A DNA stretch of 64,000 bases from Mobula hypostoma (taxonomy: Eukaryota), in assembly GCF_963921235.1 (NCBI RefSeq), contig NC_086102.1, positions 35,154,001 through 35,218,000 of the forward strand, written 5' to 3'. This document shows positions 951 through 60,000 of this stretch, in pieces; position 1 is the stretch's first letter, and each line of letters begins with the position of its first letter. The notes below the pieces were generated by a model. The model was not told where the DNA came from and searched no databases. It saw only the letters and a list, made by a program, of their open reading frames with translations. The translations under genes were made by a program, and so were the position numbers.

Positions 951-2071
951 CTCGATCTACTTTCAACCATGATGAAGTTGGAAACAGGAATAATGGCCAT
1001 ATTGTGGGATCAAGTATTACAGCGTTTTCAAATGGCCAGTGCTTCTTTGCAAACATCAGGATAAGACCTGAACACAGTTTGTGCACTCTATGAATCCTTG
1101 CATGGATATATTCAAGGTGGTCTACTTTTTAGACATTGAGCAAAAACCAAGGATCTGACTAAGTGTGAAGATTATCAACAGCAAACTCGAAAAAAACACA
1201 AGCAAAATCGTGCGAATGATGATTTCACTGGTTCCAGCACTCTTGATCCATTTGTTGAATCTCAAACACCTTCTCAGAAGTTTACAAGCCGAACATTTCT
1301 TGCCATTGTTGACAGCTTGCTTTCCGCCCTGTCAAAAAGGCAGAAAGCTTACCCAAAGGTGAATGGTGTTTTTGGATTCCATCATCAGTTACAGTTGTTT
1401 ACACCTGAAGAGACCGTAAAGAGGTCATCAAATCTTATCAAATCATATTCGGAAGATCTGCAAGAAGGTCTTGATGAAGAATTTGTGCAGCTTACTGAAC
1501 TGTTAAAAACTGATCTTGCTTCTCATATTGGCGCCAAACAAGATCTTGTAGAGTTCCAGTTGTACCGTTTGATGACTCACAATTCTTTGGAGTCATGTTT
1601 TCCAAATGTAGAAAATGCCTTGCGCATCTATTTGTCACTCATGGTTACCAACTGCAGTGGAGAACGCTCATTTTCAAAACTGAAAGGGATTAAAAATGAA
1701 CTAAGGAGCACCATGAGTCAAAACAGATTGAACAATCTCACTCTAATGAGCATTGAACATGAACTTCCGCATGAAATAGACATTTCCAGTATCATCAACA
1801 AATTTGCTCATGCTAAATCTTGAAAATCTAACTTTTAAATTGTAGTTTTGTTACTTCTGACATTTGAAATTGATCCCTACATGTAAGTAATACTATTACT
1901 GAAATGTCAGACATTTGTTGTATTATCTGACTGTATGGCAAATGAAAAAAATTGAATTACTTTACTATGCAAGTAAATAATTTATGTTTTAATACTTAAA
2001 TGCATTAAAAAAAATTTAGGGTCCCTTTATAACATATGAAACAGGCCCCGCACTAGCTTAATTCGGCCCTG
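951..2071 (+). mobile_element. hAT (Tip100/ZMYM-like) transposon 3' half with transposase dimerisation domain
   Basis: ORF 1317..1823 has FPNVENALRIYLSLMVTNCSGERSFSKLKGIKNELRSTM; right terminus ...attcggccctg (CAGGGCCG-type TIR) ends at 2071, followed directly by CR1 endonuclease sequence MGDFNMQ. Confidence 0.82.
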
Positions 2072-15271: not shown

Positions 15272-16059
15272 TTCAAGCAGTTTTCAACTCCCAGAGGAAA
15301 GCCTGAAAGTAGCAAATATCCAGGTCTGAAAGATTATTCCACAATACAGCAGGAAGACAAAGTACAGGAGACTGAATGGATACACAGGCTGGTGCAGTTT
15401 GGGTATCTGAAAAACAGCTTCACTCCTGAAGAAAGATTGGAGGGTTCAGTCCTGATGAAAATGATTGAATGGCCAAAGCCTCCCATTGCCGAAGTTCCCT
15501 TTCAGAAAAGCAGTGACCCATCACATACTTGCTTTGTTATTTTAAATTCTGGAAAGACTTTCTATGTCGGAGAACAGTTACAAGTGATGCTGCGTATGTA
15601 TGATTTTGAAAGAAATCCAAAGCACTACGGGGGTGACTATCTCCAAGCCCGGATCCACACTCCAGAGTTGAAAGCCGGTTCAGCAGGAACAGTTATAGAT
15701 CACCAAAATGGAACTTATCACATCAATTTTACTTTATTCTGGCCAGGAGAAGTCCAAGTGTCTGTTTCCTTGGTTCATCCCAGTGAAGGGATCGAAGTAC
15801 TTTGGCCACTTCGTGAAGAACAGCCATTTAGAATATTTTTGACAAGTACTTTCAAATATGGGGCTATTTCAGAGGCTACCATATGCAATGTATTTTTACC
15901 TCAAACTAAACCAATTTGTAACTTTACTTATCATAACACTGGGGAGCCGTGGATCTGCTACAAACCAAAGAATCTTCCCTGCTCTTCTGATGTCAGCTAT
16001 AAACAAGCAGGATACGTGAAGCTGCCTTTGGCCGGGGAAGACCTCAGATTTTTCCAAAT
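15272..16059 (+). CDS. NXPE3: NXPE3-like coding exon 2 (neurexophilin/Ig-like domain)
   Basis: tttcatag| acceptor in frame; open for 788 nt; motifs PKHYGGDYLQARIH, AGSAG.V.DHQNGTY, FTLFWPG, VSLVHPSEG, TGEPWICYKPK.LPC; AT|gtacgt donor (phase 2). Confidence 0.93.
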
Positions 16060-16576
16060 GTACGTTATTGACATTATTTCTATTATATTGTAACTTCGTT
16101 TCTTGATTTAGCAAGACTGCAGCAAGATTGCTCTATGTGTGTGAGGTATGGAGCAGTATGGAATTGCAGGTATTTCATGTTGTAGTTTCCAGCTGATATT
16201 CCAATATTGAAATGTCAGCTGTAAACAACACAATGACATACCTGCAAACCGTTTTGGTACAGTGACTTGCAGTCTATTTTAGCTGTAGATTTCAAATGCT
16301 TCAAAATGCCAGGTAGTGGATTATTAATGTTCCCTAAAGACATACAATTACATATACCAGAGTGGTTTATGTTATAGTTAAAAGGCATCTCAAGATACCA
16401 AAATATATCTATTGAATAGAAGGTATAACTGTATAGTTTTCTTATTCTGTTGATAACTTTGTAATTGAATGTTTACAAATTGGATTGCGCTGGTGCTACA
16501 TTTAGCACTAATGCCAAATCAAATAAACACCAAAAAATCATAAATTTGGTTAAAGGCCATTTGAAGGAGTGTTAGG

Positions 16577-33399: not shown

Positions 33400-34010
33400 T
33401 TAGATTATGAGAACACTCAGTCCTCTTTTATTGTCATTTAGAAATGCATACATGCATTAAGAATGATACAATGTTTCTCTGGCGTGATATCACAGAAAAC
33501 AAGACTAACACTGACAAAACCACATAATTATAACATATAGTTACAGCAGTGCAAAGCAATACCATAATTTGATGAAGAACAGTCCATAGGCAGAGTAAAA
33601 AAAATAGTCTCAGTCCCCGAGTCGATCGACTCCCGAGTCCCCGATAGCGGCGGCTAAAGGGAGAAACTCCCTGCCATAAACCTCCAGACACCGTCAACTT
33701 GCCAATACCTTGGAAGCAGCCGACCCCAGCCGACTCGGTACGAGTGCATCTGTCCGAAAACTCCGAGCTTCCGAGCAGCCTCTCGAGCGCCATCCTCTGC
33801 CGAGCGCCTTCGACCTCTCCCCGGCAGCTGAAACACGCAAAGCCGTGGGTTTCGAGGCCTTCAGCTCCAGATGTTCCGGTTACCACACAGTAGCAGCAGT
33901 AGCAAAGCAGACATTTCAGAAATTTTCCAGATGTTCCGCTGTGCACTCACGTCTGTCTCCATCAAATCAGGATTGTGCACGGTCCCGTACTTGACAGACA
34001 ACAGATATTA
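33400..34010 (-). mobile_element. Non-autonomous retroposon (same family as 17046 and 47230)
   Basis: Shared agattatgag.acac.cagtcctcttttattgtcattta end and internal blocks. Confidence 0.8.
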
Positions 34011-34604: not shown

Positions 34605-35144
34605 TCCCAGGGGCAGCCTACATGTACAATTGCACATCCAGCCTCCCAGGAGTTGTCTACATGTATGTGTAGACTGTATATGTACAGTCGCACACCCAGC
34701 CTCCCAGAGGTAGTCTACATGTACAGTCGCACACCCAGCCTCCCAGAGGTAGTCTACATGTACAGTCGCACACCCAGCCTCCCAGGGGTAGTCTACATGC
34801 ACAGTCGCACACCCAGCCTCCCAGGGGCAGTCTGCATGTACAGTCACACACCCAGCCTCCCAGGGGCAGTCTACATGCACAGTCACACACCCAGCCTCCC
34901 AGGGGCAGTCTGCATGTACAGTCACACACCCAGCCTCCCAGGGGCAGTCTGCATGTACAGTCACACACCCAGCCTCCCAGGGGCAGTCTACATGCACAGT
35001 CACACACCCAGCCTCCCAGGGGCAGTCTACATGCACAGTCACACACCCAGCCTCCCAGGGGCATTCTACACGTACAGTCACACACCCAGCCTCCCAGGGG
35101 CAGTCTACATGCACAGTCACACACACCGAGCCTCCTAGGGGCAG
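34605..35144. repeat. 39-bp minisatellite, left part (about 13-14 units)
   Basis: Unit acagtcRcacacccagcctcccaggggcagtctRcatgY; 13-aa periodicity in the ORF track. Confidence 0.95.
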
Positions 35145-35723
35145 TGTAACCGTCTCAGGGACATGTTTCATTGAAATGTTTATTTTATCTGTTTTTGTCA
35201 TAAATTCAAGATTAATTTATCACCTTAGAATATTTTATGTAAGGTTTATTTAATGCAGAGTTTAACAGGTCACATGACCAGGGTTAACTGGTCACATGAC
35301 CAGAGTTTGATAAAAGCATCACTGTGGTATTATGGGTCAGAACCAACATGGGAGCAGAGAAAGTCATATGGCCCTAAAATAACCTCATTCTACATGTGGT
35401 CCAAGAGGCGCACACGGTAATTGTTTTTCTTAATTTGTTTTATTTAATGTTGTTGAGGTGTCTTTATATGAACAGTGTGATACGTTTTAGTGATGTATTT
35501 GATTTCAGCACACTCCTGATGTGCTAACGTGTTTGGGCCTGTTTATCGGTGGACACTAGCTTGAGAGACTTTAAAAGACTGAGGGATGTATGTTTCAAAC
35601 TTTATGTTCTTTGTCTTGTAGTTTTCACGGTGTCTACTGAAGAGAGAGAGAGAAATAAAAATAAATCTTCATGGACATCTGTATGTTGCGTGGGCATTAT
35701 TTCATTGGACTGGTGCAGTAACA
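35145..35723 (+). repeat. BEL 5' LTR (579 bp)
   Basis: tgtaac...gtaaca; about 95% identical to the 3' LTR by hand count. Confidence 0.95.
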
Positions 35724-38065
35724 GTGAAAACGTGTAGCCAATGTGGCCGAGAGTTCAAAGTAAGGAGCACCGCGTGTCTGGGAAGAGAGGAGGAAGCACG
35801 ATCGCTGGAGTAGCGGGTGGCCGGAGAAGTTGTTGGAGAAAAGGCTTGTCGATTCAAGGGAGAAAACGGGAGTGTTGGCTCCTGACACCGTCGGGTTGAG
35901 AACACCGCGATTTCACCAAGAGAGAGCAACGTGTACCAGAGTAGGCTACAGCTTTCCAAATACCCTCTCTACAGGCTTCAGAGTGCAGGGTCTGTTTCAT
36001 TCCCTTGCTGTCTTCAGGCAGGAGAGTGCGGATCTGCAGATGGCGTCAGGTGCTCCCTTTGCAACCTTATGGACATACGTAAAATTTGAGAAATACTTGT
36101 TAAAATACTGGTTTGTTGATGAGGAAAGTAATTGATTTATCATTATAGCCTAATTGTTGTTCCTGCTTTACTAGTGGCATCGTTATGAATGTTCTTAAGG
36201 GTGTTTTTGATCTGAGAGTTCAAATGCATAATCAAAAGAGTATTAGGAGGTTAATTGAGTAAACAGTTACCAAATATTTGTACTTGAATTGCACTGACAA
36301 TTACATAGTTGCAAAAGGTTATATGCATCCTTAGCAATAACTTGGTGATAGATGCAGTCTTTCTTTTTCTAAATGTTCAATGCTACTTTAAGGAGAGTAG
36401 AACCTAGGAAATCTTCACTGGAAAGAAAGTTAACCCCAAAACTGCCGGAGCTTAAGCAACAAGAGGCTTCTCAGAGGGAGAGTGAATTCATCAAGCTATA
36501 TGAAAGCTGGAAAGACCAAGTTAGAGCTACACGTACCAAACTTAAGGATGAGTGCTCTTACCAAAACTTATGTGACATGGATGCTGTTGAAGGGCTGGAG
36601 ACACAAGTGAAAGATGTGTATGAAAATATACGATCCCAATCAGCACCTTCTACTGAGATTAGAAGAAAAATGGATTCCTGCACAGCAGTAACAGCAGATT
36701 TGAGGGGGCTAATGAACGTACGTATAAGTGAAGTGGGGTAAGAGGAGTTTGATGCTAAGGCGGAAAACGCAAGGCTTTGTATGGTGCTCAACAAAGAGTT
36801 TGCCCAGTCAATATTTGGGACTACAATCTCCAAATCCACTGCTTGTAGCCACCACGCAAGCTGTTTATCAGAACAGCAAAGCATCACAGCAGAAAGAGAA
36901 GAGTGTGCTGCACAGTTTGCTGCAAAGCAGGCCGAAATGGAGATGGAGGAGGCTATCGCTGTACAAAGGCAAGAACTTATAAGACTGAAAAGTCAGAGAG
37001 ATCTTCAAGTAATAGCCACAAATCTTAAGGCTTACTCTGAAGCTGACTCAGGTGAGGCCTTGGAGGAAAGTAGAACGGCAAGCAGTGAGCTGGCTAATTG
37101 TCTTCCAATACCTTATAAAGAAATTAAAGGGGAACAAACATGTAAGAACTATAACAATGAACAAACAAACAGTACTAACAATGAAGCATCACTAGTACAA
37201 GCCCTACATGACGTAATGGTTCTCACCAGACTTCCTGCACCCGAGTCCTCAGTCTTCTCAGGGGACCCACTTAGGTTCTCAGAGTGGAGCACAAGTTTTA
37301 AGGCATTGATAAAACAGCCATGCACAAATCCATGTGACAGGTTGTTCTACCTACAAAAATACATCAATGGTGAGGCACGATCTGTATTGGAAGGAAGTTT
37401 CTACAGAAAGGATGATGAAGCTGACGACCAGGCATGGGAGGCTTTGAATGCTTGGTACGGCCACCCCTTTGTAACCCAGTGCGCATTTAGAGAAAAACTG
37501 AATAACTGGCCAAAGATTGGCTCAAGGGAGTCAGTTAAACTGAGACAATTCAGTGATTTTCTGACAGCCTGTAGCAATGCCATGCCACATATCAAAGGGC
37601 TTCAGGTGTTAAATGACTGTGAAGAGAATCAAAGGATTCTCCAGAAACTCCCTGACTGGGTGACCTCTGGCTGGAATTGGTATGTCAGAAAGCAGTTGCG
37701 ACAAATGGGGAATTCCCTGATTTCAAGGAGTTTGCTGATTTTGTGGCACAAGAAGCAGAAATTGCATGCAATCCTGTAACATCCTTTCATGCCTTGAAGC
37801 CGACTGAAGAAAAGCCATCAAAAGACATGAAGCGCACAAAGGCTAACGTGTTCATCACAAATGTGAAAGCATCGGATGAATCAAGCACAGTGGTGGAAAC
37901 ATACAGTGCCATGGAGAACAGCTCAAAGGATTCAAACGGTTCCAAGAAGGTAAACACTTTGTTTTCATCTTCAAACCCAGTCACCTGCATGTGCTGTGGA
38001 GAAAGCCACTCCATCCACAAATGCCAGAAGCTCACCAATAAGACTGTGAAGGACAAGAGAAGGTT

Positions 38066-39822
38066 CATAGAAACCATAGAAAACCATAGAGAAACTACAG
38101 CACAGAAACAGGCCTTTTGGCCCTTCTTGGCTGTGTCGAACCATTTTCTGCCTAGTCCCACTGACCTGCACACGGACCATATCCCTCCATACACCTCCCA
38201 TCCATGTAGCTGTCCAATTTATTCTTCAATGTTAAAAAAGAACCCGCATTTACCACCTCGTCTGGCAGCTCATTCCATACTCCCACCACTCTCTGTGTGA
38301 AGAAGCCCCCCCTAATGTTCCCTTTAAACTTTTCCCCCCTCACCCTTAACCCATGTCTTCTGGTTTTTTTCTTCCCTTGCCTCAGTGGAAAAAGCCTGCT
38401 TGCATTCACTCTATCTATACCCATCATAATTTTATATACCTCTATCAAATCTCCCCTCATTCTTCTACGCTCCAGGGAATAAAGTCCTAACCTATTCAAC
38501 CTTTCTCTGTAACTGAGTTTCTCAAGTCCCGGCAACACCCTTGTAAACCTTCTCTGTACTCTTTCAACCTTATTACTATCCTTCCTGCAATTTGGTGACC
38601 AAAACTGAACACAATACTCCTGATTCGGCCTCACCAATGCCTTATACAACCTCATCATAACATTCCAGCTCTTATACTCAATACTTTGATTAATAAAGGC
38701 CAATGTACCAAAAGCTCTCTTTACGACCTTATCTAACTGTGATGCCACTTTTAGGGAATTTTGTATCTGTATTCCCAGATCCCTCCATTCTACTGCACTC
38801 CTCTGTGCCTTACCATTTACCTTGTATGTTCTACTTTGGTTTGTCCTTCCAAAGTGCAATACCTCACACTTGTCAGTATTAAACTCCATCTGCCATTTTT
38901 CAGCCTATTTTTCCAGCTGGTCCAAATCCCTCTGCAAGCTTTGAAAACATTCCTCACTGTCCACTACACCTCCAATCTTTGTATCATCAGCAAATTTGCT
39001 GATCCAATTTACCACATTATCATCCAGATCATTGATATAAATGACAAATAACAATGAACCCAGCACTGATCCCTGTGGCACACCACTAGTTATAGGCCTC
39101 CACTCTGAGAAGCAATCCTCTACTATTACTCTTTGGCTTCTTCCATTGAGCCAATGTCTAATCTAATTTACCATCTCTCCATGTATACCTAGCGACTGAA
39201 TTTTCCTAACTAACCTCCCATGCGGGACCTTGTCAAAGGCCTTACTGAAGTCCATGTAGACAACATCCACTGCCTTCCCTTCATCCACTTTCCTGGTAAC
39301 CTCCTCGAAAAACTCCAACAGATTGGTCAAACATGACCTACCACGCACAAAGCCATGTTGACTCTCCCTAATAAACCCCTGTCTATCCAAATGCTTGTAG
39401 ATTCTGTCTCTTAGTACTCCCTCCAATAACTTACCCACGACCGACGTCAAACCTGCCGGCCTATGATTTCCCGGATTACCTTTTGATCCTTTTTTAAACA
39501 ACGAAACAACATGAGCCATTCTTCAACCCTCCGGCACCTCACCCGTAGACACCGACATTTTAAATATATCTGCCAGGGCCCCTGCAATTTTAACACTAGT
39601 CTCCTTCAAGGTCCGAGGGAATACCCTGTCAGGTCCTGGGGATTTATCCACTTTAATTTGCCTCAAGATAGCAAGCACCTCCTCCTTTTCTATCTGTACA
39701 GTTTCCATGATCTTACTACTTGTTTCCCGTAATTCCATAGACTTCATGCCAGTTTCCTTAGTAAATACAGGTGCAAAAAAACCCATTTAAGATCTCATTT
39801 AAGAAAATCTATTTAAGATCCC
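38066..39822 (-). mobile_element. 5'-truncated CR1 LINE inserted in BEL gag
   Basis: Long RT ORFs 38152..38889 and 39163..39519; (catagaaac)n tail; splits gag between DKRRFI and NNLCFGC. Confidence 0.93.
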
Positions 39823-42800
39823 ATTGAATAATAACCTGTGCTTTGGCTGTCTTAGGAAAGGACATAATTCAAAGGATTGTAAGAGCAAAGCTACTTGTGG
39901 CATATGTAAGAAACATCATCCAACACCACTTCATGAAGACCGTCCTTCTGCTGCAGCAGACACATCTTCTAATGTTATGCAAGGGGAAGAAAACACATCT
40001 TCCCTTTCTTGCTGCATAGCCAGAGGCGATGGTGGGAGTACATCCATGATATTGCCTGTATGGATTTCTTCAATCACCACCCCTAAAACAGAGACCTTAG
40101 TGTATGCCCTATTGGATACACAGAGTAGCAACACTTTAGTAGTCCAAGAGGTATGTGAGAAGATGGGGGCAGGATTAGAGCCAGTCAAGTTAAAGCTTGC
40201 CATTATGATGGGAAAAGATTCCATTGTTCAGAGTTGAAGAGCTAGTGGGCTTAGAGTTAGAGGGTTTTCCTCACGAAGTTTCATCAATTTGTCACCTGCC
40301 TGTACCAGAGATTTCATCCCACTCGAACGTTCCCACATTCCTACCCCTGAAATGGCCAAGAGGTGGAAACACCTGAATAGAATAGCACAGGAAATACCAG
40401 AGCTGATGGATTGCGAGGTCAGACTCCTGATAAGCTACGACTGTGCGAGAGCATTGGCACCACGGCATGTCATTACAGGAGGTGACGATGAGCCGTATGC
40501 CATCAAGACTGACCTGGGTTGGAGCATTGTCGGCAGCTCACCGTGGGTCGCAAAGTCAACAGAAGTGACAGGTCTGTGCCATCGTGTATCTGTCAAAGGA
40601 CTTGCACCATTGACACCAGCCACTGTCATTAGAGCCCTTAAATCAGACTTTGGAGATGGAAACCCTGGGGGAAAGAGCATATCACAAGTTGACCACAAGT
40701 CCCAGGTCAATGAGCCACAGTCTTCGAAAGTGCAGTCCCTGGAGAACACGCGTACAGTCGAGAAAGGAGAGGTTTACAACTTGGGGCAAGTAAAACACTC
40801 ACTGCCTGAGAAGCTTCAACAGTTAGAGTTTTGTCTCAGAGTGGAGACTCATGAAAAAGGTGAAATAATCACACAGCTTGAGCAGGAAACAAAATCTTGC
40901 CAGCAAGAGACTATAAACTTGAATGAAAAAGTCAAAATTTTAGAAGATGACAAATCTCTCCTCCAGGAAGAACTTGAAAATGTCCAGGAAATGTCAGACA
41001 AAGTCGAGAATGAGAGAGAGTACCTGGAGGCAGAATTACTAAAAAATGTTGACAAGGTTGATCAATTAACTGAAGCACTAAAGACACTTCATATGCAGAA
41101 TAATTCACTTGTCAATGAATTAGATTGCTTCAGAGAAGAGAAATGTCATTTGATCAAAGAAAGAGAACAAAAGTGGTAAAAGAGGACAATTTTATAGAGA
41201 GACTTAAACGGTTCTCAAAATGGCATACAGCATTGAATGTGGTTAGCCAGATCCAGCAGCTAGCAAAGAGAACCAAAACAGCAAAACCCATACATGGTGA
41301 AGACAGAAGAAAGGCCAGTCTTGAGTTGTAAAATTGGCACAAAGGGACGCCTTCAAAGAGGAAATGCGAATACTGAGTCATAACAAACTGCCACACGGCC
41401 ATCCATTGTTCCAACTTGACCCAGTATTGCAAGATGGTGTTCTCAGGGTGGGAGGGCGATTAAAGAAAGCTCCTTTACCTCTCGACTTGAAGCATCCAGT
41501 AATCCTACCAAGAGATGGTGTGGTCACACATCTGATCCTAGATTACTGCCATGGAAAAACTCAGCACCAAGGCAGAGGACAAACACTTTATGAACTGAGA
41601 AGAAATGGTTACTGGGTTGTTGGTGGCAGCAAAGTTATGGCGAACTACATGAAACAATGTATTACATGCAGGAAAGCTCGCAGGCCAACAGAAACGCAAA
41701 AGATGGCGGATCTTCCTGCCAACCGTGTCGATCCCTCGCCACCATTCTCATACTGTGGGATGGATTGTTTTGGACCATTTCACACTAAGCAAAATTGTAA
41801 AGAGTACAAGAGATACGGTCTCATATTCACCTGTCTGTCCTCGAGGACAATTCACATGGAAGGCATCAGAGTTAACTACTGATGCCTTCATAAATGCTTT
41901 ACGGTGTTTTATAGCTATCTGTGGAGCTGAAAGACAAATCAGGTTGGATCAAGGGACAAACTTTGGTGCGAGAAATGAACTGACAAAAGCCTTAAAGGAA
42001 ATGGACAAAGACAGACTGACGGCTTACCTGGCCGAAAAACTATGTGACTTCACCATGAATGTACTTGATGCCAGTCACATGGGAGGTGTTTGGGAACAGC
42101 AGATTAGGACAGTTAGCGTCCTGAGCTGGGTCCTCTTACAGAGCGCTGGAAGATTAGATGATGCTTCTTTGAGAACTGTTTTCTATGAGGCCATGTCAAT
42201 TATAAACAGCCACCCACTCACCAGCCTAGAGCCACTTATCCCAAATCATTTACTTACCATGAAAACCTCTGTTCCGCTGCCTCCACCAGGAAAATTTATG
42301 GCAGAAGATCTGTATGCCAGGAAAAGGTGGCGCAGAGTGCAATATCTGACAGAGCAATTCTGGAGTAGATGGAAGAAAGAATATCTAGCAAACATCACCT
42401 TCAGACAGCGCTGGCACTCTTTAAGATGAAATGTGAAGATTGGAGATATTGTCATTGTAAAAGAGGAAGGGATTCCTCATAGTGAATGGAGACTTGGAAG
42501 AGTGCTTGATGTTTGTGAAGATGAAGATGGACTGGTGCGAAGAGCCACAATACAATTAGGAAATAAAAGGCTAGGATAAGAGAGTCAACGACTCATTAAT
42601 CCATCCATTTTTGAACGTCCTATTCATAAATTAGTTGTCCTTGTAGAGAACAACTAAAATGTGCTCCAATGGAACTAATTTCTAAACACACCTGTGTGGA
42701 GAGTTTAAAGTATCCGTCTTGACCTTAGAGTTTGTTACAAATACCAATTATTTGGTTCTGGAAATTACTAGATTTATTCAAAAATTTGTATAAAGATTAT

Positions 42801-42826
42801 CATAAATCATAGTAATTTGGTGGGAG

Positions 42827-43409
42827 TGTAACTGCCTCAGGGTCATGTTTCATTGAAATGTTTATTTTATCTGTTTTTGTCATAAATTCATGAATAAGTT
42901 ATCAGCTTAAAGTATTTTATGTAAGGTTTATTTAATGCAGAGTTTAACAGGTGACATGACCAGAGTTAACAGGTCACATGACCAGAGTTTGATAAAAGCA
43001 TGACTGTGGTATTATGGGTCAGAACCAACATGGGAGCAGAGAAAGTCATATGGCCCTAAAATAACCTCATTCTGCATGTGGTCCAAGAGGCGCACACGGT
43101 AATCGTTTTTCATAATTTGTTTTATTTAATGTTGTTGAGGTGTCTTTATATGAACAGTGTGATACGTTTTAGTGATTTATTTGATTTCAGCACACTTCTG
43201 ATGTGCTAACGTGTTTGGGCCTGTTTATCGGTGGACACTAGCTTGAGAGACTTTAAAAGACTGAGGGACGTATGTTTCAAACTTTATGTCCCTTTGTTTT
43301 CGTGTAGTTTTCACGGTGTCTACTGAAGAGAGAGAGAGAAATAAAAATAAATCTTCAAGGACATCTGTATGTTGCGTGGGCATTATTTCATTGCACCTGT
43401 GCAGTTACA
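42827..43409 (+). repeat. BEL 3' LTR (583 bp)
   Basis: Preceded by purine tract ggtgggag; tgtaac...gttaca. Confidence 0.95.
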
Positions 43410-43831
43410 GGCAGTCTACATGCACAGTCGCACACCCAGCCTCCCAGGGGCAGTCTACATGCACAGTCGCACACCCAGCCTCCCAGGGGCAGTCTATAAG
43501 CACAGTCGCACACCCAGCCTCCCAGGGGCAGTCTACAAGCACAGTCATACACCCAGCCTCCCAGGGGCAGTCTACAAGCACAGTCGCACACCTAGTCTCT
43601 CAGGGGCAGTCTACATGTACAGTCGCACACCCAGCCTCCCAGGGGCAGTCTACATGTACAGTCGCACACCCAGTCTCTCAGGGGCAGTCTACATGTACAG
43701 TCGCACACCCAGCCTCCCAGGGGTAGTCTACATGTACAGTCGCTCACCCAGCCTCCCAGGGACAGTCTACATGTACAGTTGCACACCCAGCCTCCCAGGT
43801 GCAGTCTACATGTACGGTCACACACCCAGCC
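43410..43831. repeat. 39-bp minisatellite, right part (about 11 units)
   Basis: Same unit as 34605-35144, resuming in register after the TSD. Confidence 0.95.
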
Positions 43832-46750
43832 TGACTATTGTGTTGTGGTGAAATACCTTCTCAATCATTAAAATTAAAAAGAGGTTGTGGGTGACTGGCT
43901 CCTTGGAGCTGATATACTGTACGTCTCTCTGCTCCGGCTAATCAGTGTGTATACCTCACCAGCGTTGAGCAAACGTTAAGCTATTCCCCAGCAGCTTCCA
44001 CTGCTACTGATCTCTTCCAGTCATTCTACTTGGAGATTTCTGGTGTATCACTGATGCAGCTGGACAATCCCGCAGTGCTGACAGCAGCTCCAAACTCCTG
44101 GTGTAAATGGCTTAAAAATACAAAGATGCCTGATACCTTCAGCAGACGAAGCACAGCTGCAACAGAGATGGACTGGGACAGAACCTCAGTACATTCCTGA
44201 GTAAACTTCTTCTTCATATAGAAGGCAGTTGTGGTCAGACCCAGCTGCATCACATCGGTGTTCTTCTCTGACCACTGTCCCCTGCGAGCCTTATGTCACT
44301 GATAAGAGGACCAGAAAGTAGGCGGGGGATGTAGTAGTTAACTGTCAATTTGCTAGACCCTGAGAACAGCAAGAACCGTAAAGTCTGCTTTCACAATGGC
44401 TGTCTGGTAGAAGGCACTAAAGTGAACATCAAGAGGTTCTTCATCGTCTGTGGTGTTTAGAAAGCAAGGCCTGGGGTAAGGGGAATTGTGTCGTCTCCAG
44501 GCAGACTTGGTTCAACTTCTCCGTCTGCAGTTGGAGTGGGTGGGGGGTGGTGTAGTGGATGTAAGAGAAGAACTCCAAGAGGTGAAGAGCCAGCATGCTG
44601 TTCTTTGCCTCGGAATCCCACAGAATTATTACTGGATCCAGGCTCTGCTTTGTGGAGCAGGATGAGACCCTCTCACATATCTTCTTCCAAGGGGGTTTAA
44701 CATGACAGGAGGACATGTGGTCCACAGCCTTAAGGAAGAGGACAGCTCAGAAACATCCTCACGAACAGACATACTCAGGAGCTACTGTTCTGTATGACAG
44801 ATAGTCTACAGAAAACAAATCCTCTCAGTACTTCCTGCCCTCTATCACGGAACTGTTAGGTGACAGCAAATGGGAGAGCTCGGATCCGCCACTGACTGGC
44901 TCCATTGCTTCCCTTAGCACAAACAAAACTCCTGGAAAAAATGTCTTCATGAGAGTTGTATTCAGCTGTGTGGGGCTGGATGGACTTCGACCTGCTGGAA
45001 GTGTATAATGCTATGCTTCTGGCTAGCAGCAAGTCAGACTCCATGAGGAAGGGCATCATTTCCCTCACTGACGAGCTGAAAGGGGAGAGGAAGAACATCA
45101 GGAAGTGAAGACCATTTCACTGTTGAATATAGACTCTAAGATCCTGTCCAAAACCTTCACCAATGGAATCAAGTTTGCTCTGGGGCAGGTGATCCACCCA
45201 GAACGGACCTGTGCTGAACCTGGCAGGAAAATCTCTGGTCAGGGCAAAGCTGTCAAAGATTTTGCCTTTGGGTGATACAAGGGTGTGGAAACCAGTCTGT
45301 TCAGCTTGGACCGAAAGAAGTCCTTCAGCAGGATATCAAACATATACATGGTGGATGTGGTCTCCAAAATGAGTTTTGGGAAGGGATTAGAAATTAGATC
45401 CAACTGCTCAACACAGATATCTATAGTCCAGTCCAAATTAATTAGTGGGAGGTAAATAGTTTCCTCATCAAGTATAGAGTCAGGTAGGGTTGCCCAATCT
45501 CCACTGTCTTTACTGTATGCTGTAAAGAACCCTTTGTTGAAATCATCAGGAAGGGCAAGGCAGTGACGTAACACATCAAAATCTTCTAGTAGATGGATGA
45601 TTTCATCGTTTTCTGCTCAGACCCATGGTCAGGTCACAAACTGATCAGCATCTGTGACCAGTTGAGTTGACAGTGAGGGCTAGAGTCAACCTCCAAAAGA
45701 GCAAGGCCAAACGCTCCCGACTGACCCAATGCCCTCTTTACCATCAGGTCCAACCACTTCAAGGTGCTGTATATCTGATTCTGTGTGGGTGAGGCTCGGG
45801 CTAAGTAACAGGAACTGGTTGGAGTGGATTGGGATTGTAAATAAAAAGAACTGAGTCTGTGGAAATGACACTCTATCAATTACTGGGAAGAACTTGTTTT
45901 TTAACCATATTATTTCCGGTTTTGCACTATTTTTAATTGAACTATTTAGTATACATATATACTGCAATTTATTTATTTATTTTCTTTCTATATTATGTGT
46001 TGCAATGTACTCCTGCTGCTGTTAACAAATTTCATGCCACATGCCGGTGATAATAAAGCTGATTCTGATTCTGAACAGATGTGATATGCTGTCAGAGCTG
46101 TTGTACCTGGCACAGGTCTGGCCTGTTCCTCATTCCTCTGCCTCGATAATTATCCAGTTTATCTGAGTGTCCAGGAAGGAATGGGTCCGATGGATCACTC
46201 TGCACAAGTTCCCAGAGAACTGGGCCAAAGTATACTAATATTGCTCTCATCTTGATGACCACCTACATTTGCAATTGTGTGAACCCTAAATATATGGGCA
46301 CCAGATGTTAGTACGTATTGAAGTCCTACTTTCCCTAGTGTTGTAGAAGATCGGCCTGGCTGCATTACTACACAATACCTCAGTCATCTGGACATTCTTC
46401 ACCTGCCTTTCATGGAGGAGGACTTCCAGTAAACTCCTTTAACCACAGGTCCACCAGGCAGTGTTCAAAGTGGAATGTCCTGCAGACGCTGCAGAACAGA
46501 GACTCTATGGATACAGGGGGGTGGTTCCCAGAGCAGACTGGCAGAACGCCTCATCATCAGAACACAATCCGGCACCAAGACCTTGCTTTTCCAGCAGTGA
46601 GAGGGGCCCTCACAGTCAGTGTTGTGTCTGTTCAACTGCACATCAAATAAGAAAAGAAGGAGCAGTTGGAGGAATAGTTAACTGATGCATTTACTTTGCA
46701 GAGAGAACAACAGACCAATGTGCATGTGTAAGTTATCAGTCAATATTCAG
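43832..46750 (+). mobile_element. Degenerate Tx1/L1-clade LINE ORF2
   Basis: LRLISVY, LGDF.C, FVEQDET, RPISLLNIDSKILSK-like and QVIHPERTCAEPGRKIS in broken frames. Confidence 0.75.
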
Positions 46751-47229: not shown

Positions 47230-47857
47230 TAGATTAGATTAGATTATGAGGACACGCAGTCCTCTTTTATTGTCATTTAGTAATGCATGCATTAAGAAAT
47301 GATACAATATTCCTCCGGTGTGATATCAGAGAAACACAGGACAGTCCAAGACTGAAAAACAAAAACGGCATAATTATAACATATAGTTACAACAGTGCAA
47401 CAATACCATAACTTGATGAAGAACAGGCCATGAGTACAGTAAAAAAGTTCAAAGTCTCTCGAAAGTCCCACATCTCACGCAGACGGGAGAAGGAAGAAAA
47501 CTCTCCCTGCCATACCCGACCACAGTCCGACTCTGAGTCATCCGAAAACTTCGAGCTCCGATCAGCATCACTCCGACACCAAGTACTGAGCACCATCTCT
47601 GCTGAGCGTTTCGACCCCAGCCTCGGTCACCAGCAACAGGCAAAGCCGGGGATTTTGAGGCCTTCCCTCTGGAGATTCTCGATCGCACAGTAGCAGCAGC
47701 AGCGGCGAACCGGGCATTTCAGAAATTTCTCCAGATGTTCCTCTATGCCTTCTCACGTCTGTCTCCATCAAATCAGAATTGTGCACGGCATCCTACTTAC
47801 AAATACGATATCATTTCATCGGAGACCTGCGCGTGCTGCGTCGTGCCGCCATCTTCC
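47230..47857 (-). mobile_element. Apparently full-length (about 630 bp) non-autonomous retroposon
   Basis: Minus strand starts ggaagatggcggcacg and ends (TCTAA)n; no coding capacity; other copies in the window. Confidence 0.8.
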
Positions 47858-47869
47858 TGTCCAATCTCG

Positions 47870-50800
47870 AAGCTCCTTGCTGATTCACTTGGCAACTGGC
47901 TGAACTATGGATTCTGCACTTCCCTCCTTAGGTCTGGTTTCAGGAGGTCTACGCAGATCTCAGGTTCCTGCTCATGAACTGCATTGCAGGTGTTTGATTT
48001 GTCATCGCCTTAACAGAGTTCCGATACACAAAAAAGTTGTCCACCTTTGTACTGTAAAGAAATGTCCTCCTTGTCCATAGTTTTAATGGACGTCTTGAAG
48101 GTGTGGATAATCCTTTCAGCCAACCCATTCATTGTTGGGTGGTGAGGAGTTGACTTGAAATGTCTGATGCCATTTTTTTTCCATGAATAGTCTGAACTCT
48201 TCTGACATGTATTGTAGTCCATTGTCACTCACAGTTTGTTCTGGCTAGCCACTTTTGGAGAAGATAGTACTCAGAGCAGAAACAGTCTTTTCTGAAGTGG
48301 TTGGTTTCATTGGTATGACCTCAGGCCACTTTGAATGAGAATCCACAGCAATCAGAAACATGGAGTCCATAAATGGCCCAGCAAAGTCAATATGTACTCT
48401 TTGCCATGGTGAAGATGGTCACTCCCACAGGTGTAATGGTGCCTGTAGGGGTGCATTTTGAACTTTGGGTGGCATCCTGAACAGCTTTTGGTCAAGTCTT
48501 CAATCTGTCGATCTATTCCCGGCCACCACATGTAAATCTGCGTGAGACTCTTCATCTTGACCGTGCACCCAGGTATCCTTCATGCAGATTTTCTAACACA
48601 CTGGTGTGCAGTTTAGACAGAACCATAACATACGATCAATACATCTGGGTTCTTTGACACACAGACAATTGGTCTTGTCTCACTGAGGACTCTGGAAACA
48701 GGATTACCATGAGCTGGCCATCCTTGCATGGTGATGTCATAGACTTTTGACAAGTCGGGTCATTCCTTACTTCTTTTTGTATTTCAGAATATGTTACTAG
48801 CAGCTGGTCCACCCATGCAGTGTAGAACACTTCTGGGTCACAGAATGAAGACTTATCTTCAATTGCCAACAGTGGAAGACATGACAAGCCATCAGCAATG
48901 CTGTGTTGTTTCGTGCCCTTGAACTCTATGTCATAAGAGTGGGCTCCTAGGAGTTGTGCCTAATGTTGCAACCAGGTAGCAGACTTCACTAGGATTCTCT
49001 TCCTGTGAGTGAAAATCGACACAAGAAGCTGGTGGCCTGTCTTTAGAGTAAATGTTTGTCCATAGAGGTCAATCTGTGCATAATTGTGTTCTGCCCTTGT
49101 CAGTGATCTTGAAACAAATACAATCAGACGTTCAAATCCATCTTTCATAAGGTGTGACAAAATGGCACCAATGCCTTAGGGGGACATACTTCAAGCCGAT
49201 CTGATGAGCCTAGATGAGTCGTAATGAGTGAAGAGTTCATTTGATGTTATAAGTCTCTGCTTCTTTGAATGCTATTTCACACCTTTCTGACCATTCCCAC
49301 TTTGCTCCTGCCTGCAACAGTGTGTTCAATGGGTGCAGCACTGTAGCAATGTTTGGGAGAAGCTGGTGGTAGTAGTTTACAAGGCCCAAGTATGACCTGA
49401 ATTGCGACATATTTTCTGGTTTGGGTGCCTGTAGCACTGCTTCAGTCTTCTCTTGTGATTTATGTAAGTCATGCTTGTCAGTGACGTATCCACAATATGG
49501 GATTTCATTCTTAAAACACTCACATTTCTCTCTCTTTGCCTGCAGACCATACTCACTCAGCCTGGTAAGCACTTTATCAAGGTTCTGGAGGTGATTTTCA
49601 TCATTTTTGCCAGTCACAATGATGTCAACAAGGTAACCTTCTGTTCCTGGGATATCTTGGAGCACTTGGTCATTGGCCTTTGCCAATCTGCTGAAGCTGA
49701 TGCGACACCAAAACGAGACAATTATACTGGAACAGTCCCTTGTGAGTGTCAATTGTGAGGAACTTCCTGCTTGACTCCTCACTCTCCATTTGCAGATAGA
49801 CTTGTGACAAGTCAATCTTTGTAAACCTCTCCCTGCCTGCCAAAGATGCAAAAGTGTCTTCCATTTGTGACAAGGGATACTGCACAGTACGCAGCACAGG
49901 GTTGATGATCACTTTGAAGTCCCCACATATGCTAACAGCTTCGCCTTTCCCTTTCTTGATCACTGGGACAATGGGCTTGCCTCAATTAATCCACTCAACC
50001 TTGGAGAGAATGCCAAATGCCTCCAAGCTCTGAAGTTCAGAATCCACTTTAGGATGTAGTGAGTAAGGCACTGGATGCACTTTATGGAAATTTGATGTTG
50101 CTGCTTCATCCCGTTCAATTCTGGCTTCCATGCCTTTGAGTTTACCAATATCTTCCTCAAACACCTTCTCATTAGCATTCCGCAGCTGTGACAGTCTCTG
50201 GTTTGTGCTACTGTTTGGGCTGCAGTTGCCTGTTGATGACACATTGAGAGCATTGATTGTATGCCAGTCTATTTGGATTTTTCTCAACCATTCATGTCCA
50301 AAAAGTGCTGGCCCTCCACCTTTCAACACATAAAACTCTAATTGCTGTGTTTTGTCTCTTTGCTTTCAGTTTGCCTTTAGGAGATAATTATTCATCTGTG
50401 TAAGTCCTTAGCATCACTGAGTTCTCTCTCATGGTAGCTTAGAAAACAGTCTGTTGAAGTCAGCCTCTGAAATTCTAGACAAATCTGACCCTGTATCCAG
50501 GTTTATTTTCAGTTTTACACCAGACACATTTGTTTGGTTTTGTGTTTGAAACTTTTCCCTGTGTAGTTTTTCTCTTTGTTTATGCTTTTTGTCTGACTTG
50601 CATTCTCTCTTTCAGACCTTGTCTGTGACACTTTCTGCAAACTTTTTCTTTGAACTAACAGTCCTTTGCATCATGGGAGGATTTGCTACATCAATAAAAC
50701 TTTTGGCTTTTGGCACCATTCAGGGACATTTTGCACATCTCACAGTCTAAACTCTCTTTCTGTAATTTGCTGCATCTTCTGCTACAGTCTCTAACGATAT

Positions 50801-51276: not shown

Positions 51277-52888
51277 GCAAACAACAGGAATTCTGCAGAT
51301 GCTGGAAATTCAAGCAACATACATCAAAGTTGCTGGTGAACGCAGCAAGCCAAGCAGCATCTGTAGGAAGAGGCGCAGTCGACGTTTCAGGCCGAGACCC
51401 TTCATCAGGACTAACTGAAGGAAGAGTGAGTAAGGGATTTGAAAGCTGGAGGGGGAGGGGGAGATGCAAAATGATAGGAGAAGACAGGAGGGGGAGGGAT
51501 AGAGCAGAGAGCTGGACAGGTGATAGGCAAAAGGGGATACGAGAGGATCATGGGACAGGAGGTCCGGGAAGAAAGACGGGGGGGGGGGTGACCCAGAGGA
51601 TGGGCAAGAGGTATATTCAGAGGGACAGAGGGAGAAAAAGGAGAGTGAGAGAAAGAATGTGTGCATAAAAATGAGTAACAGATGGGGTACGAGGGGGAGG
51701 TGGGGCCTTAGCGGAAGTTAGAGAAGTCGATGTTCATGCCATCAGGTTGGAGGCTACCCAGACGGAATATAAGGTGTTGTTCCTCCAACCTGAGTGTGGC
51801 TTCATCTTTACAGTAGAGGAGGCTGTGAATAGACATGTCAGAATGGGAATGGGATGTGGAATTAAAATGTGTGGCCACTGGGAGATCCTGCTTTCTCTGG
51901 CGGACAGAGCGTAGATGTTCAGCAAAGCGGTCTCCCAGTCTGCGTCGGGTCTCACCAATATATAAAAGGCCACATCGGGAGCACCGGACGCAGTATATCA
52001 CCCCAGTCGACTCACAGGTGAAGTGATGCCTCACCTGGAAGGACTGTTTGGGGCCCTGAATGGTGGTAAGGGAGGAAGTGTAAGGGCATGTGTAGCACTT
52101 GTTCCGCTTACACGGATAAGTGCCAGGAGGGAGATCAGTGGGGAGGGATGGGGGGACGAATGGACAAGGGAGTTGTGTAGGGAGCGATCCCTGCGGAATG
52201 CAGGGGGGGGGGAGGGAAAGATGTGCTTAGTGGTGGGATCCCGTTGGAGGTGGCGGAAGTTACGGAGAATAATATGTTGGACCCGGAGGCTGGTGGGGTG
52301 GTAGGTGAGGACCAGGGGAACCCTATTCCTAGTGGGGTGGTGGGAGGATGGAGTGAGAGCAGATGTACGTGAAATGGGGGAGATGCGTTTAAGAGCAGAG
52401 TTGATAGTGGAGGAAGGGAAGCCCCTTTCTTTAAAAAATGAAGACATCTCCCTCGTCCTAGAATGAAAAGCCTCATCCTGAGAGCAGATGCGGCAGAGAC
52501 GGAGGAATTGCGAGAAGGGGATGGCGTTTTTGCAAGAGACAGGGTGAGAAGAGGAATAGTCCAGATAGCTGTGACAGTCAGTAGGCTTATAGTAGACATC
52601 AGTGGATAAGCTGTCTCCAGAGACAGAGACAGAAAGATCTAGAAAGGGGAGGGAGGTGTCGGAAATGGACCAGGTAAACTTGAGGGCAGGGTGAAAGTTG
52701 GAGGCAAAGTTAATAAAGTCAACGAGTTCTGCATGCGTGCAGGAAGCAGCGCCAATGCAGTCGTCAATGTAGCGAAGGAAAAGTGGGGGACAGATACCAG
52801 AATAGGCACGGAACATAGATTGTTCCACAAACCCAACAAAAAGGCAGGCATAGCTAGGACCCATACGGGTGCCCATAGCTACACCTTT
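51277..52888 (-). mobile_element. Young 5'-truncated Penelope-like element (RT + GIY-YIG)
   Basis: MGTRMGPSYACLF, FLRYIDDC and GVIYCVRCSRCGLLYIGET; perfect 14-bp TSD agccttatttttac (51263-76 / 52889-902). Confidence 0.95.
51377..51412 (-). ncRNA. Minimal type I hammerhead ribozyme motif in the Penelope terminal repeat
   Basis: AGUC-CUGAUGA-a-GGGU(cucg)GCCU-GAAAC-GUC-GACU: core boxes, stem I, stem II and GUC cleavage triplet. Confidence 0.8.
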
Positions 52889-53239
52889 AGCCTTATTTTT
52901 ACTTTAGTTTTGCTAGTTGTGTCTCTCTCACTGTGTACTGTGCACTAGTACTCACGGGCGAAGAGGTTTTGTTGACAGTTGCTACGGGTGGTGTCTCGGC
53001 TCATCCCAAGCAGCTGTGTAATGGAAAACTCTGACCTACAGAATGTACCCGGAGACACACACCAAGATAAATATCAAGCGCTGCTTGAAGTTCATTAACT
53101 TGGTGAAGGACACTCTTTTGACTGCCTGACATTTATTGCTCTTCCAGCGCAGCAACAGGTCTGTAAGGCAATGCTGCAGATCGGCGCGGTCCAGGCTGCA
53201 CTGCCGCTCAGTATAGCCAACGTTACGGTGCCATATGGG

Positions 53240-57009: not shown

Positions 57010-60000
57010 TGGTGATTATAGGAACAGTCAACATGGATTTGTGCGTGGAAGGTCATGTTTGACAAATCTTATAAAATTTTTTGATGAGGTTACTAAGAAA
57101 GTTGACGGGGGTAAAACGGTGGATGTTGTCTATATGGACTTCAATAAGGCCTTTGACAAGGTTCCACACGGAAGGTTAGTTAAGAAAGTTCAATCGTTAG
57201 GCATTAATATGGAAGTAGTAAAATGGATTCAGCAGTGGCTAGATGGGAGACGCCAGAGAGTAGTGGTGGATAACTGTGTGTCAGATTGGAGGAGGGTGTG
57301 TAGTGGTGTGCCTCAGGGATCTGTACTCGGTCCAATGTTGTTTGTAATATATATTAATGATCTGGATGATGGGGTGGTAAATTGGATTAGTAAGTATGCA
57401 GATGATACTAAGATAGGTGGTGTTGTGAATGATGAGGTAGGTTGCAGAGAACTTGCAGAGAAAACTTGCAGAGAAAATTAGGACAGTTAGAAGAGTGGGC
57501 TGAAAGATGGCAGATGGAGTTTAACGCTAAAAAATGTGAGGTGCTTCATTTTGGTAGAACTAATCAAAATAGGACATACATGGTAAATGGTAGGACATTA
57601 CAGAATGCTTTAGAACAGAGGGATCTAGGAATAATGGTGCATAGTTCCCTGAAGATGGAATCTCATGTGGATGGGGTGGTGAAGAAAGCTTTTGGTTTGC
57701 TGGCCTTTATTAATCAAAGCTTTGAGTATAGGAGTTGAGATGTAATGTTGAATTTGTATAAGGCATTGGTAAGGCCAAATCTGGAGTATTGTGTACAGTT
57801 CTGGTCACCGAATTATAGGAAAGATGTCAATAAAATTGAGAGAGTACAGAGGAGGTTTACTAAAATGTTGCCTGGGTTTCATCTCCTAAGTTACAGAGAA
57901 AGGTTGAACAAGTTAGGTCTTTATTCTTTGGACCGGAGAAGGTTGAGGGGGAACTTGATAGAGGTGTTTAAAATTATGAGGGGGATTGATGAGTTGACGT
58001 GGTTAGACTTTTTCCATTGAGAGTGGGGAAGATTCAAACAAGAGGACATGGGTTGAGAATTAGAGGACAACCATTGAAAGCTGCAGATTTTCCCCCAAGC
58101 CTCCTCTGAAAGTACCAACCCCGCTTCTTTCTCCCACTTCTCTTTAATATACAGTGTATTTACATTTTTAGCATGAGAGAGTGCATTATATAGGCGAGAA
58201 ACTGATTTACTAGGTATTGAACTGCAAGCCGAATTCAGAATCTTGAAAAATTCTAATTCTACTGTTGATAGGTCTGTATATCTACAACTCTGGTTAACAT
58301 AGTTTCGTATTTGAAGGTACCTAAAAAAGTCATTATGTTCTAGGCCATGTTTGTCCTGCAGGATTTGGAAACTTTGTAATACTCTTTTATCTATAAATGA
58401 GAGGTAGGTTGTAAGACCTTTCTTTATCCATAGCTCAAATCTTTTATCTCCTCTGTTGGGAAGGAATTCGGTATCATATGCACACCATCTAAAGAGTTTT
58501 AGCATGTTATTAATTCCACATGAATTAACCACCTTCTGCCATACTTTTAATGTAAGATTTATCCAAGCATTATTAAATTTTTCCAACTGGGCCATCAATC
58601 CTTTGTCAGCTATTGAGGCCTGAAGAGGAAAACTGTCAACTAATCCAAATTCTATTTCCTTCCATCTAGCCTTATATTCCCTATTACACCAATATAATTT
58701 CTCAGGCAAGGAAGAACCATACCTCCTCTTTCCTTCCCTAACTGTAAGGTGTTATATCGAATTCTAGGTTTCCTTCCTTGCCAAATGAAGCAGGAAATCC
58801 ATTTGTCCCATTCCCTGAATTGATTATCATCCACCTCCACTGGTAAAGTACGGAAAAGATATAATAACCGAGGAAGGATATTCATTTTTATAGTATTTAT
58901 CCTTGAATTTAAACTTAAAAAGGGGATAAAATTCCATCTATACATATCTGCTTTTATCTCTGAGATTAATGGCCCATAATTTACCTGTGACAGTGTTGAA
59001 AGATCCTTCGGCAGGGTTATTCCTAAATATTTTAATGATTTAGCTTCCCACTTAAGATCGTATGTATCCTGCAATTTTTTGGATGGTGTATAATTTAGGG
59101 ACATAACCTGCGTTTTCTTTACATTTATTTTATAACCTGATATTTTCCCAAAGTCATCCAACAGTGTAAACAATCCTATAAATCATTTTTCTGGTTCATT
59201 CAGATAGACCAAAACATCATCTGCGAATAACGCCACTTTCTGTTCAATCCCTGCCACCTTGATACCTTTTACGATTTCGCTCTGTCTTATTAGTTGGGCA
59301 AGTGGTTCAATATATAGCGCAAAAAGGAGAGGAGAAATTGGGCATCCCTGTCTAGTGCCTCTCTCTAAAATGAAGGAGTCAGAGAGGTCCCCATTTATCT
59401 TAATTCGGGCTGTAGAGCTGTCATATAGAGTCTGAATTACTTTAATAAACCTTTCTTGAAAGCCGAATCTTCCTAACACTCTGTATAGGAATGCCCAACT
59501 AACCGAATCAAAAGCTTTCTCAGTGTCCAATCCTACTACCATTGTCTCTGTCTCCTTCTTATTAACCTGTTCTAATATGTGCAGAGTTCTCCTTATGTTG
59601 TCCTGTGTTTGTCTTTGTTGAATAAATCCAGTCTGGTCTTCTTTGACTTGAAGAGAACATTGTTGGAAAAACATTATAAGATACTTCAAGACCCCATATC
59701 AGGAAAAATATAAAGATACAAATGTGATGTGTTGGAGAAGGTGCGGCTCCAAGGGGGCAAATCATTTTCATATTTTCTGGGATTGCCCTAAATTAAGTCT
59801 ATTGTGGGAAGGTATTCATAGAACATTAGTTAAGGTACTTAGGTCCCAGATACCTCTGAACTTTGAGACGCTCTATTTGGGGCATGTATTGTTCCTTATA
59901 AAGTTGCTGCAGGCCCTCTTAGCGGCAAGTAAGAAATCAATCACTAGAAAATAGCTAAATCCAATACCACCTACATTAGAAGATTGGTACGAAATTATCT

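Follow-up and report, generated by a model that had tools for sequence, protein, structure and literature searches.

A giantin-like coiled-coil exon piece in place of reverse transcriptase and RNase H in a BEL/Pao retrotransposon subfamily of Mobula hypostoma

The window analyzed here, a 64,000-nucleotide stretch of Mobula hypostoma DNA (contig NC_086102.1, positions 35,154,001 to 35,218,000 of the forward strand; coordinates below are counted from its first letter), contains a BEL/Pao element that spans positions 35145-43409. The element sits inside a 39-bp minisatellite, with about 12 units on one side (34680-35145) and about 11 on the other (43410-43832). Three short direct repeats, 87-93% identical and 13.8 kb apart, flank this region at 33400-33992 and 47239-47798 and are possibly two copies of another repeat. 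Elsewhere in the window, we take a 273-residue frame at 15272-16093 (+) to resemble an exon of an NXPE-family gene, and frames at 1140-1823 (+), 49237-49908 (-), 52031-52903 (-) and 57921-58751 (+) to resemble a hAT transposase tail, a Gypsy reverse transcriptase (RT), a Penelope-like RT and an L1-type ORF2, respectively. The features of the element are as follows.

35140..35144, no strand: left target-site duplication (TSD) GGCAG, within the 39-bp minisatellite
35145..35723, plus strand: 5' LTR, paired with the 3' LTR, starting TGT and ending ACA
36373..38069, plus strand: gag with DUF1759 and the first zinc knuckle, broken by stops and frameshifts
38070..39822, minus strand: 1.75-kb LINE fragment, antisense, inside gag and private to the window copy
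39823..40680, plus strand: further zinc knuckles, aspartic protease (LLDTQS, Asp near 40115) and post-protease linker
40681..40693, plus strand: 5' switch point, 13 nt common to element and donor (12/13 identical, same codon phase)
40681..41167, plus strand: captured sense-strand piece of a giantin-like (GOLGB1-like) exon, coiled coil
41160..41190, plus strand: 3' switch point (type A), return to pol just before the integrase, with the frame broken in the window copy only
41168..42657, plus strand: pre-integrase linker and integrase (H2C2, DDE core, DUF5641), frameshifted in the window copy, stop at 42655-42657
42827..43409, plus strand: 3' LTR, TGT...ACA
43410..43414, no strand: right TSD GGCAG

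The initial annotation had described a BEL/Pao element with paired LTRs, a TSD, gag and a DDE-type integrase, and had reported that RT and RNase H motifs are missing between protease and integrase. Our analysis bears this out. GGCAG stands on both sides of the LTR pair, and the two LTRs diverge by 4.5% (580 columns). Pfam profiles matched the gag DUF1759 domain (31.4 bits, cut-off 25.4), Integrase_H2C2 (30.8 bits, cut-off 25.5) and DUF5641 (27.5 bits, cut-off 23.1), and no RT or RNase H match was obtained by Pfam in the 313-residue frame at 40238-41179. The protease is labeled from its LLDTQS motif and its position, without a Pfam match. The coiled-coil character of the intervening region was likewise confirmed, as E, K, L and Q make up 50% of its residues and its hydrophobic periodicity of 3.5 residues was matched in 0/2000 shuffles. 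Two features had been overlooked: the antisense LINE fragment, which contains minus-strand RT-like frames and across which (38069/39823) the sister copies are uninterrupted, and a stop codon at 40235-40237 in the protease region. The window copy is dead, since gag is interrupted by the LINE fragment, a stop lies in the protease region and the frame is shifted both at the 3' junction and in the integrase. It is also a non-autonomous BEL/Pao derivative because its RT-RNase H is replaced by host sequence.

The original content of the replaced interval is visible in sister elements. Seven of the 30 PF05380 loci examined (of 150 scored) are members of the family of the window element, with 89-93% identity in the protease region (39823-40680). 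These RT-bearing sisters have the pol order protease-RT-RNase H-integrase with PF05380 (L106 and others), and the 1.73 kb that they carry between the sites matching 40693 and 41166 contains PF05380 together with RT/RNase H motifs. The stretch lost to the capture thus reaches from the post-protease to the pre-integrase linker and comprises RT-RNase H, and the host sequence substitutes for part of the internal open reading frame and does not merely interrupt it. Together with the in-frame junctions of the sister copies, this upholds the proposed in-frame replacement of RT-RNase H by a host segment. Capture of a segment at 40688-41179, as initially delimited, also stands; its bounds do not, and we place them at 40681-41167, the first 13 nt being common to the element.

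To identify the donor, we searched the M. hypostoma genome with 40688-41179 and obtained at least 25 matches, 24 of them inside the BEL/Pao family and one without element flanks. This single non-element match (L004, contig C45, from G000:C45:11814604) shows 95.5% identity along 487 nt, and 146 of 159 residues of the captured piece are identical to it. The donor frame runs on in both directions from the matched piece inside a 3,519-codon exon (10.5 kb), so that the captured piece lies wholly within one exon. Among the best 120 homologues of this exon, most are annotated as golgin subfamily B member 1-like and the others are uncharacterized or loosely named; cartilaginous-fish homologues in this set are 62-78% identical, and mammals are absent from it. 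Orthologues matching the exon range from skates to birds, and all nine donor homologues inspected have a C-terminal hydrophobic tail. Pfam gives the donor no name, and searches of the ESM Atlas and PDB sequences returned generic coiled-coil look-alikes only.

The genome holds a second giantin-family gene on contig C66 (L125), 47% identical to the donor gene at C45 (L026-L031). A tree of 20 rows places the C66 gene together with mammalian GOLGB1 and the donor among long GOLGB1-like proteins (support 100/100), a clade that comprises skates, sharks, sturgeons, turtles and birds and whose members are mostly 4,700-4,900 residues long. This placement rejects canonical giantin GOLGB1 as the donor, which on sequence comparison is a long giantin paralogue (GOLGB1-like) of the same genome. 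The orthologues of this paralogue in ray and sturgeon are 47-48% identical.

The initial annotation had instead suggested a CENP-F-like source. An insert derived from CENP-F, or a coil born within the element that resembles a host protein by chance, could draw on a weak CENP-F_leu_zip score (E=0.021); this score amounts to 15.3 bits where the cut-off is 34.5 and is one of 17 weak coil matches, and the name CENP-F is absent among the best 120 donor homologues. Set against 95.5% DNA identity to a giantin-like exon that continues in frame on both sides, this alternative is refuted and retains practically no probability.

At least 24 dispersed copies carry the giantin-like piece. All 23 copies that reach it share a single 5' junction, at which parent and donor agree in 12 of 13 nt, and behind it lie two 3' junctions. 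Type A, represented by 17 copies including the window copy, carries about 0.5 kb of donor and keeps the integrase, returning to pol just before it beside a 15/21-nt similarity. Type B, with 5 copies plus one truncated copy that has the longer donor piece, extends through 639 nt of donor before rejoining the element in the integrase tail, where 10/11 nt match, so that the integrase core is absent. One further chimeric copy is cut by another insertion and is not assignable to either type, and no copy with more than 639 nt of donor was found. By chance, microsimilarity such as that at the three junctions would arise at 2e-6 to 3e-5 per position pair. Read as they lie, 23/23 copies keep the phase across the 5' junction, as do 5/5 across junction B and all 16 type A sisters across junction A; the window copy alone has a short private deletion at junction A. 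The frame break that had been noted before the integrase therefore exists, and its nature is corrected to a deletion private to this copy. We did not accept the in-frame junctions as proof of selection, as in-frame pairs account for 48-54% of the chance microsimilarities between the two coding sequences (a null of about 0.5 per junction) and all three junctions would be in frame with a chance of about 0.13.

Eleven chimeric copies have both ends called, and their 5-bp TSDs are perfect in seven cases, have one mismatch in three and are unreadable in one; the readable TSDs are all different. The swap thus preceded spreading and integration, as shown by at least 24 copies with shared junctions and different TSDs, which substantiates the earlier description of a trans-mobilized derivative and rejects a post-insertion rearrangement in a single copy. 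None of the outcomes that the initial annotation had listed against its own reading (no host match, RT/RNase H profile matches in the interval, a single-copy chimera) occurred. LTR pairs diverge by 4.5-8.8% in eight chimeric copies (more than 500 columns each) and by 4.8-5.8% in three RT-bearing copies, indicating that both kinds spread in the same period and making the RT-bearing sisters, similar in age, candidate helpers. Both the cargo tree and the protease-region tree are star-like, with neither type A nor type B forming a clade, and give no order of the two types. One type A copy and one RT copy have a common protease haplotype (support 100/98), which reveals recombination within the family.

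DNA contigs of two other organisms carry chimeric junctions, X6 that of type A and X11 the 5' junction, the latter through one contig reaching 33 letters beyond the start of the junction; judged from these contigs alone, the capture probably predates the species splits from X6 and X11. Contigs from two runs that we guessed to be RNA (4 of 24 runs were examined) represent mainly the donor transcript and may be of DNA origin; one depth-2 contig from a guessed-RNA run, which may also be DNA, crosses the 3' junction of the window copy. The NCBI ‘uncharacterized protein’ model P0125 (ray) matches the coil-integrase-tail frame of the type B copy L095 with 100% identity, and chimeric fusion frames account for spurious gene models such as this one.

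The RT-bearing and integrase-bearing parts of the family are largely separate. Among 17 non-chimeric loci mapped, 11 have one common 1.1-kb integrase deletion, one has another large integrase loss, three keep the core and two are truncated. Conversely, 14 of 20 integrase-core matches (one partial) lie in giantin-bearing copies, three in RT-bearing copies and three in unassigned ones. RT and integrase are therefore found mostly in different subfamilies. The RT-RNase H subfamily with the 1.1-kb integrase deletion (L105, L108-L111, L126-L129, L131 and L134) is a mirror of type A.

We evaluated selection by comparing nonsynonymous:synonymous counts of non-CpG variants common to at least three copies with those of private variants, the untyped chimeric copy being counted with type A. 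In the coil, shared variants (16:7) did not differ significantly from private ones (181:53, p=0.44), and the shared/private ratio of 0.67 was not different from that of gag-protease (p=0.64) in what is, for the coil, a test of low power; purifying selection on the coil was not detected by this comparison. Among the several tests run on the chimeric copies, gag-protease (77:45 shared versus 722:228 private, p=0.003) and type A integrase (19:14 versus 346:117, p=0.04) gave lower shared ratios. Indels kept the frame in 3/3 shared and 9/36 private cases in type A integrase (p=0.024), and 12 of 16 shared indels in gag-protease shift it. A stop is the commonest codon in none of 205 coil columns, none of 501 integrase columns and 6 of 896 gag-protease columns, all six within the first 130 bases. 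As stops are so seldom the commonest codon, the source elements probably had an open frame. The majority differences between coil and donor (12 nonsynonymous and 12 synonymous, junction-edge sites included) look rich in synonymous changes; we did not use them because at least three of the nonsynonymous ones are host-lineage changes according to an outgroup and the synonymous ones are not polarizable. The suggestion that the coil alters integrase multimerization or targeting finds no backing in these data, given a coil without detected purifying selection and a type B that spread without the integrase core.

We interpret the window element, with good confidence, as a dead copy of a BEL/Pao subfamily in which RT-RNase H was swapped for about 0.5 kb of host giantin-like sequence by RNA-level template switching. 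RT would have switched between the element RNA and a co-packaged giantin-like mRNA, guided by microsimilarity. A single original capture, comprising 639 nt of donor or more, would have given the shared 5' junction and would later have been resolved into the two 3' junctions, type A being most simply viewed as a further switch from a type-B-like longer RNA onto an integrase-bearing sister. The hybrid would then have been copied around the genome with RT supplied in trans by sister elements. We thus infer an RNA intermediate, a single capture and RT provision in trans. The donor mRNA, very long and with a purine-rich sense strand (2207 microsimilarities to the element versus 1137 on the antisense strand, about twofold), is a likely target for such a capture. 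The RNA step itself is unproven since the piece spans no exon junction; for the same reason, the earlier argument from an ‘intron-less’ segment is uninformative.

A DNA-level origin, in which microhomology-mediated templated insertion used the giantin-like locus or its cDNA to mend a break in a genomic element copy, which then became the source element, would equally place the piece inside one exon, and junction microsimilarity also fits end-joining. We consider it improbable: the piece is in sense orientation and comes from a coding exon, the combination of a single 5' junction with two different 3' junctions fits more than one switch in the course of reverse transcription, family members visibly recombine, and no LTR or internal piece of the family was found within 120 kb around the donor. 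These 120 kb likewise held no remnant of an element from which read-through into the donor could have started, an origin that retains some probability because the donor gene may reach further.

A different question is whether the coil serves the element. Template switching is compatible with a selected Gag-protease-coil-integrase open frame, in which the coil would serve as a linker, in frame, through which RT-less copies deliver integrase, or would confer a cis advantage similar to that of mouse IAP 1-delta-1, whose fusion protein acts in cis according to the text available to us of a review (PMC6466679). The chimeric copies would then complement the RT-positive, integrase-deleted subfamily. 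This agrees with the concentration of integrase cores in giantin-bearing copies, with the shared integrase deletion of most non-chimeric loci, with the stop-free majority frames of coil and integrase and with weak constraint on type A integrase; indeed, the constraint on gag-protease and type A integrase exceeds what a pure passenger RNA would need. However, flanking-gene constraint can be imported from helpers by recombination, as the common protease haplotype of a type A and an RT copy illustrates, the coil lacks significant constraint, type B spread without the integrase core and the in-frame joins fit chance. Three copies with both RT and integrase exist, and a few complete helpers could mobilize all defective types, which is simpler than complementation between subfamilies. 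Complementation between the RT-bearing and integrase-bearing subfamilies is thus possible, a selected open frame appears unlikely and a family split into complementing halves, with RT-positive integrase-less copies and RT-less copies whose coil linker was kept for delivering integrase, is doubtful. We favor, with moderate confidence, a coil that is a neutral passenger happening to keep the frame open.

Acutely transforming retroviruses carry host coding sequence, in frame, in place of replication genes, depend on helpers and show short junction homology. Unlike them, the giantin-like chimera is a germ-line retrotransposon in which no envelope was seen, and there is no sign that the cargo benefits the BEL/Pao element. 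A closer precedent is LTR-mediated retroposition, which generates chimeric retrocopies and for which Tan et al. 2016 (PMC5131818), in the text available to us, model RT switching between element RNA and host mRNA and name the BEL/Pao carriers BATUMI (fly) and BEL18_AG (mosquito). As in those cases, part of an internal open reading frame is replaced by partial host sequence in sense orientation, the junctions show microsimilarity, both LTRs are kept and a non-autonomous form with shared junctions has spread secondarily. The giantin-like capture hence displays the testable hallmarks of LTR-mediated retroposition, a mechanism that is already known and already reported for insect BEL/Pao elements. 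Compared with the cases in the available text of PMC5131818, it differs in residing in a vertebrate (cartilaginous fish) BEL/Pao element with at least 24 copies, in having one 5' and two 3' junctions and in being fused in frame with the polyprotein of an element that keeps its integrase; its cargo, lying inside one exon, spans no junction at which intron loss would show.

Mouse IAP 1-delta-1, as far as PMC6466679 describes it in the portion available, is similarly non-autonomous with an internal loss (1.9 kb) and an open fusion frame, and out-spreads its full-length relatives; a cis function, demonstrated experimentally for IAP, would be hypothetical for the chimera, and IAP lacks host cargo. 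Bovine ERVK D/C, MusD/ETn and recKoRV, in the corresponding part of PMC10924933, also have a central segment swapped for foreign sequence with flanks kept, are trans-complemented, outnumber in defective form the competent elements and recombine with them. These are retroviruses whose swapped-in piece is an old retroelement, whereas the chimera is a BEL/Pao element with a host coding exon. We found no published account of a BEL/Pao-giantin capture among the titles and abstract openings examined, which include few subscription papers; fish BEL carriers may be listed in the supplements of PMC5131818.

Two observations extend beyond the family of the window. A teleost protein, P0126 (NCBI, Metynnis hypsauchen), is 80-86% identical to L106 and to window positions 40406-40693, linker included, compared with 47-48% between the giantin-like orthologues of ray and sturgeon; this likeness to the ray BEL family raises the possibility of horizontal transfer, and the available part of PMC3118150 found no recent transfer between distant species. 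In addition, the genome contains SUDS3-like copies, with at least 119 Sds3 matches among 150 scored, and in three of six loci read (L118-L123) SUDS3-like sequence follows Gypsy-like protease-region sequence in one frame.

In summary, the giantin-like chimera is real and well resolved, and its cargo is probably a passenger. It represents a vertebrate BEL/Pao host-gene capture for which the donor, the RT-bearing parent, all junctions and at least 24 descendants are found in one genome, so that each step can be read directly, and its one 5' and two 3' junctions would be a record of repeated template switching. The lead of greatest interest is the recurrence of host capture in two superfamilies, with a detection bias toward in-frame coils possible. 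If in-frame coiled-coil capture is truly enriched genome-wide, cargo choice would be filtered by the element's own translation. If the family is indeed divided into complementing halves, then the implication, together with SUDS3 in Gypsy-like elements, would be a repeated and selective recruitment of host coiled coils by ray LTR elements, with the coils taking the place of enzymes in frame.
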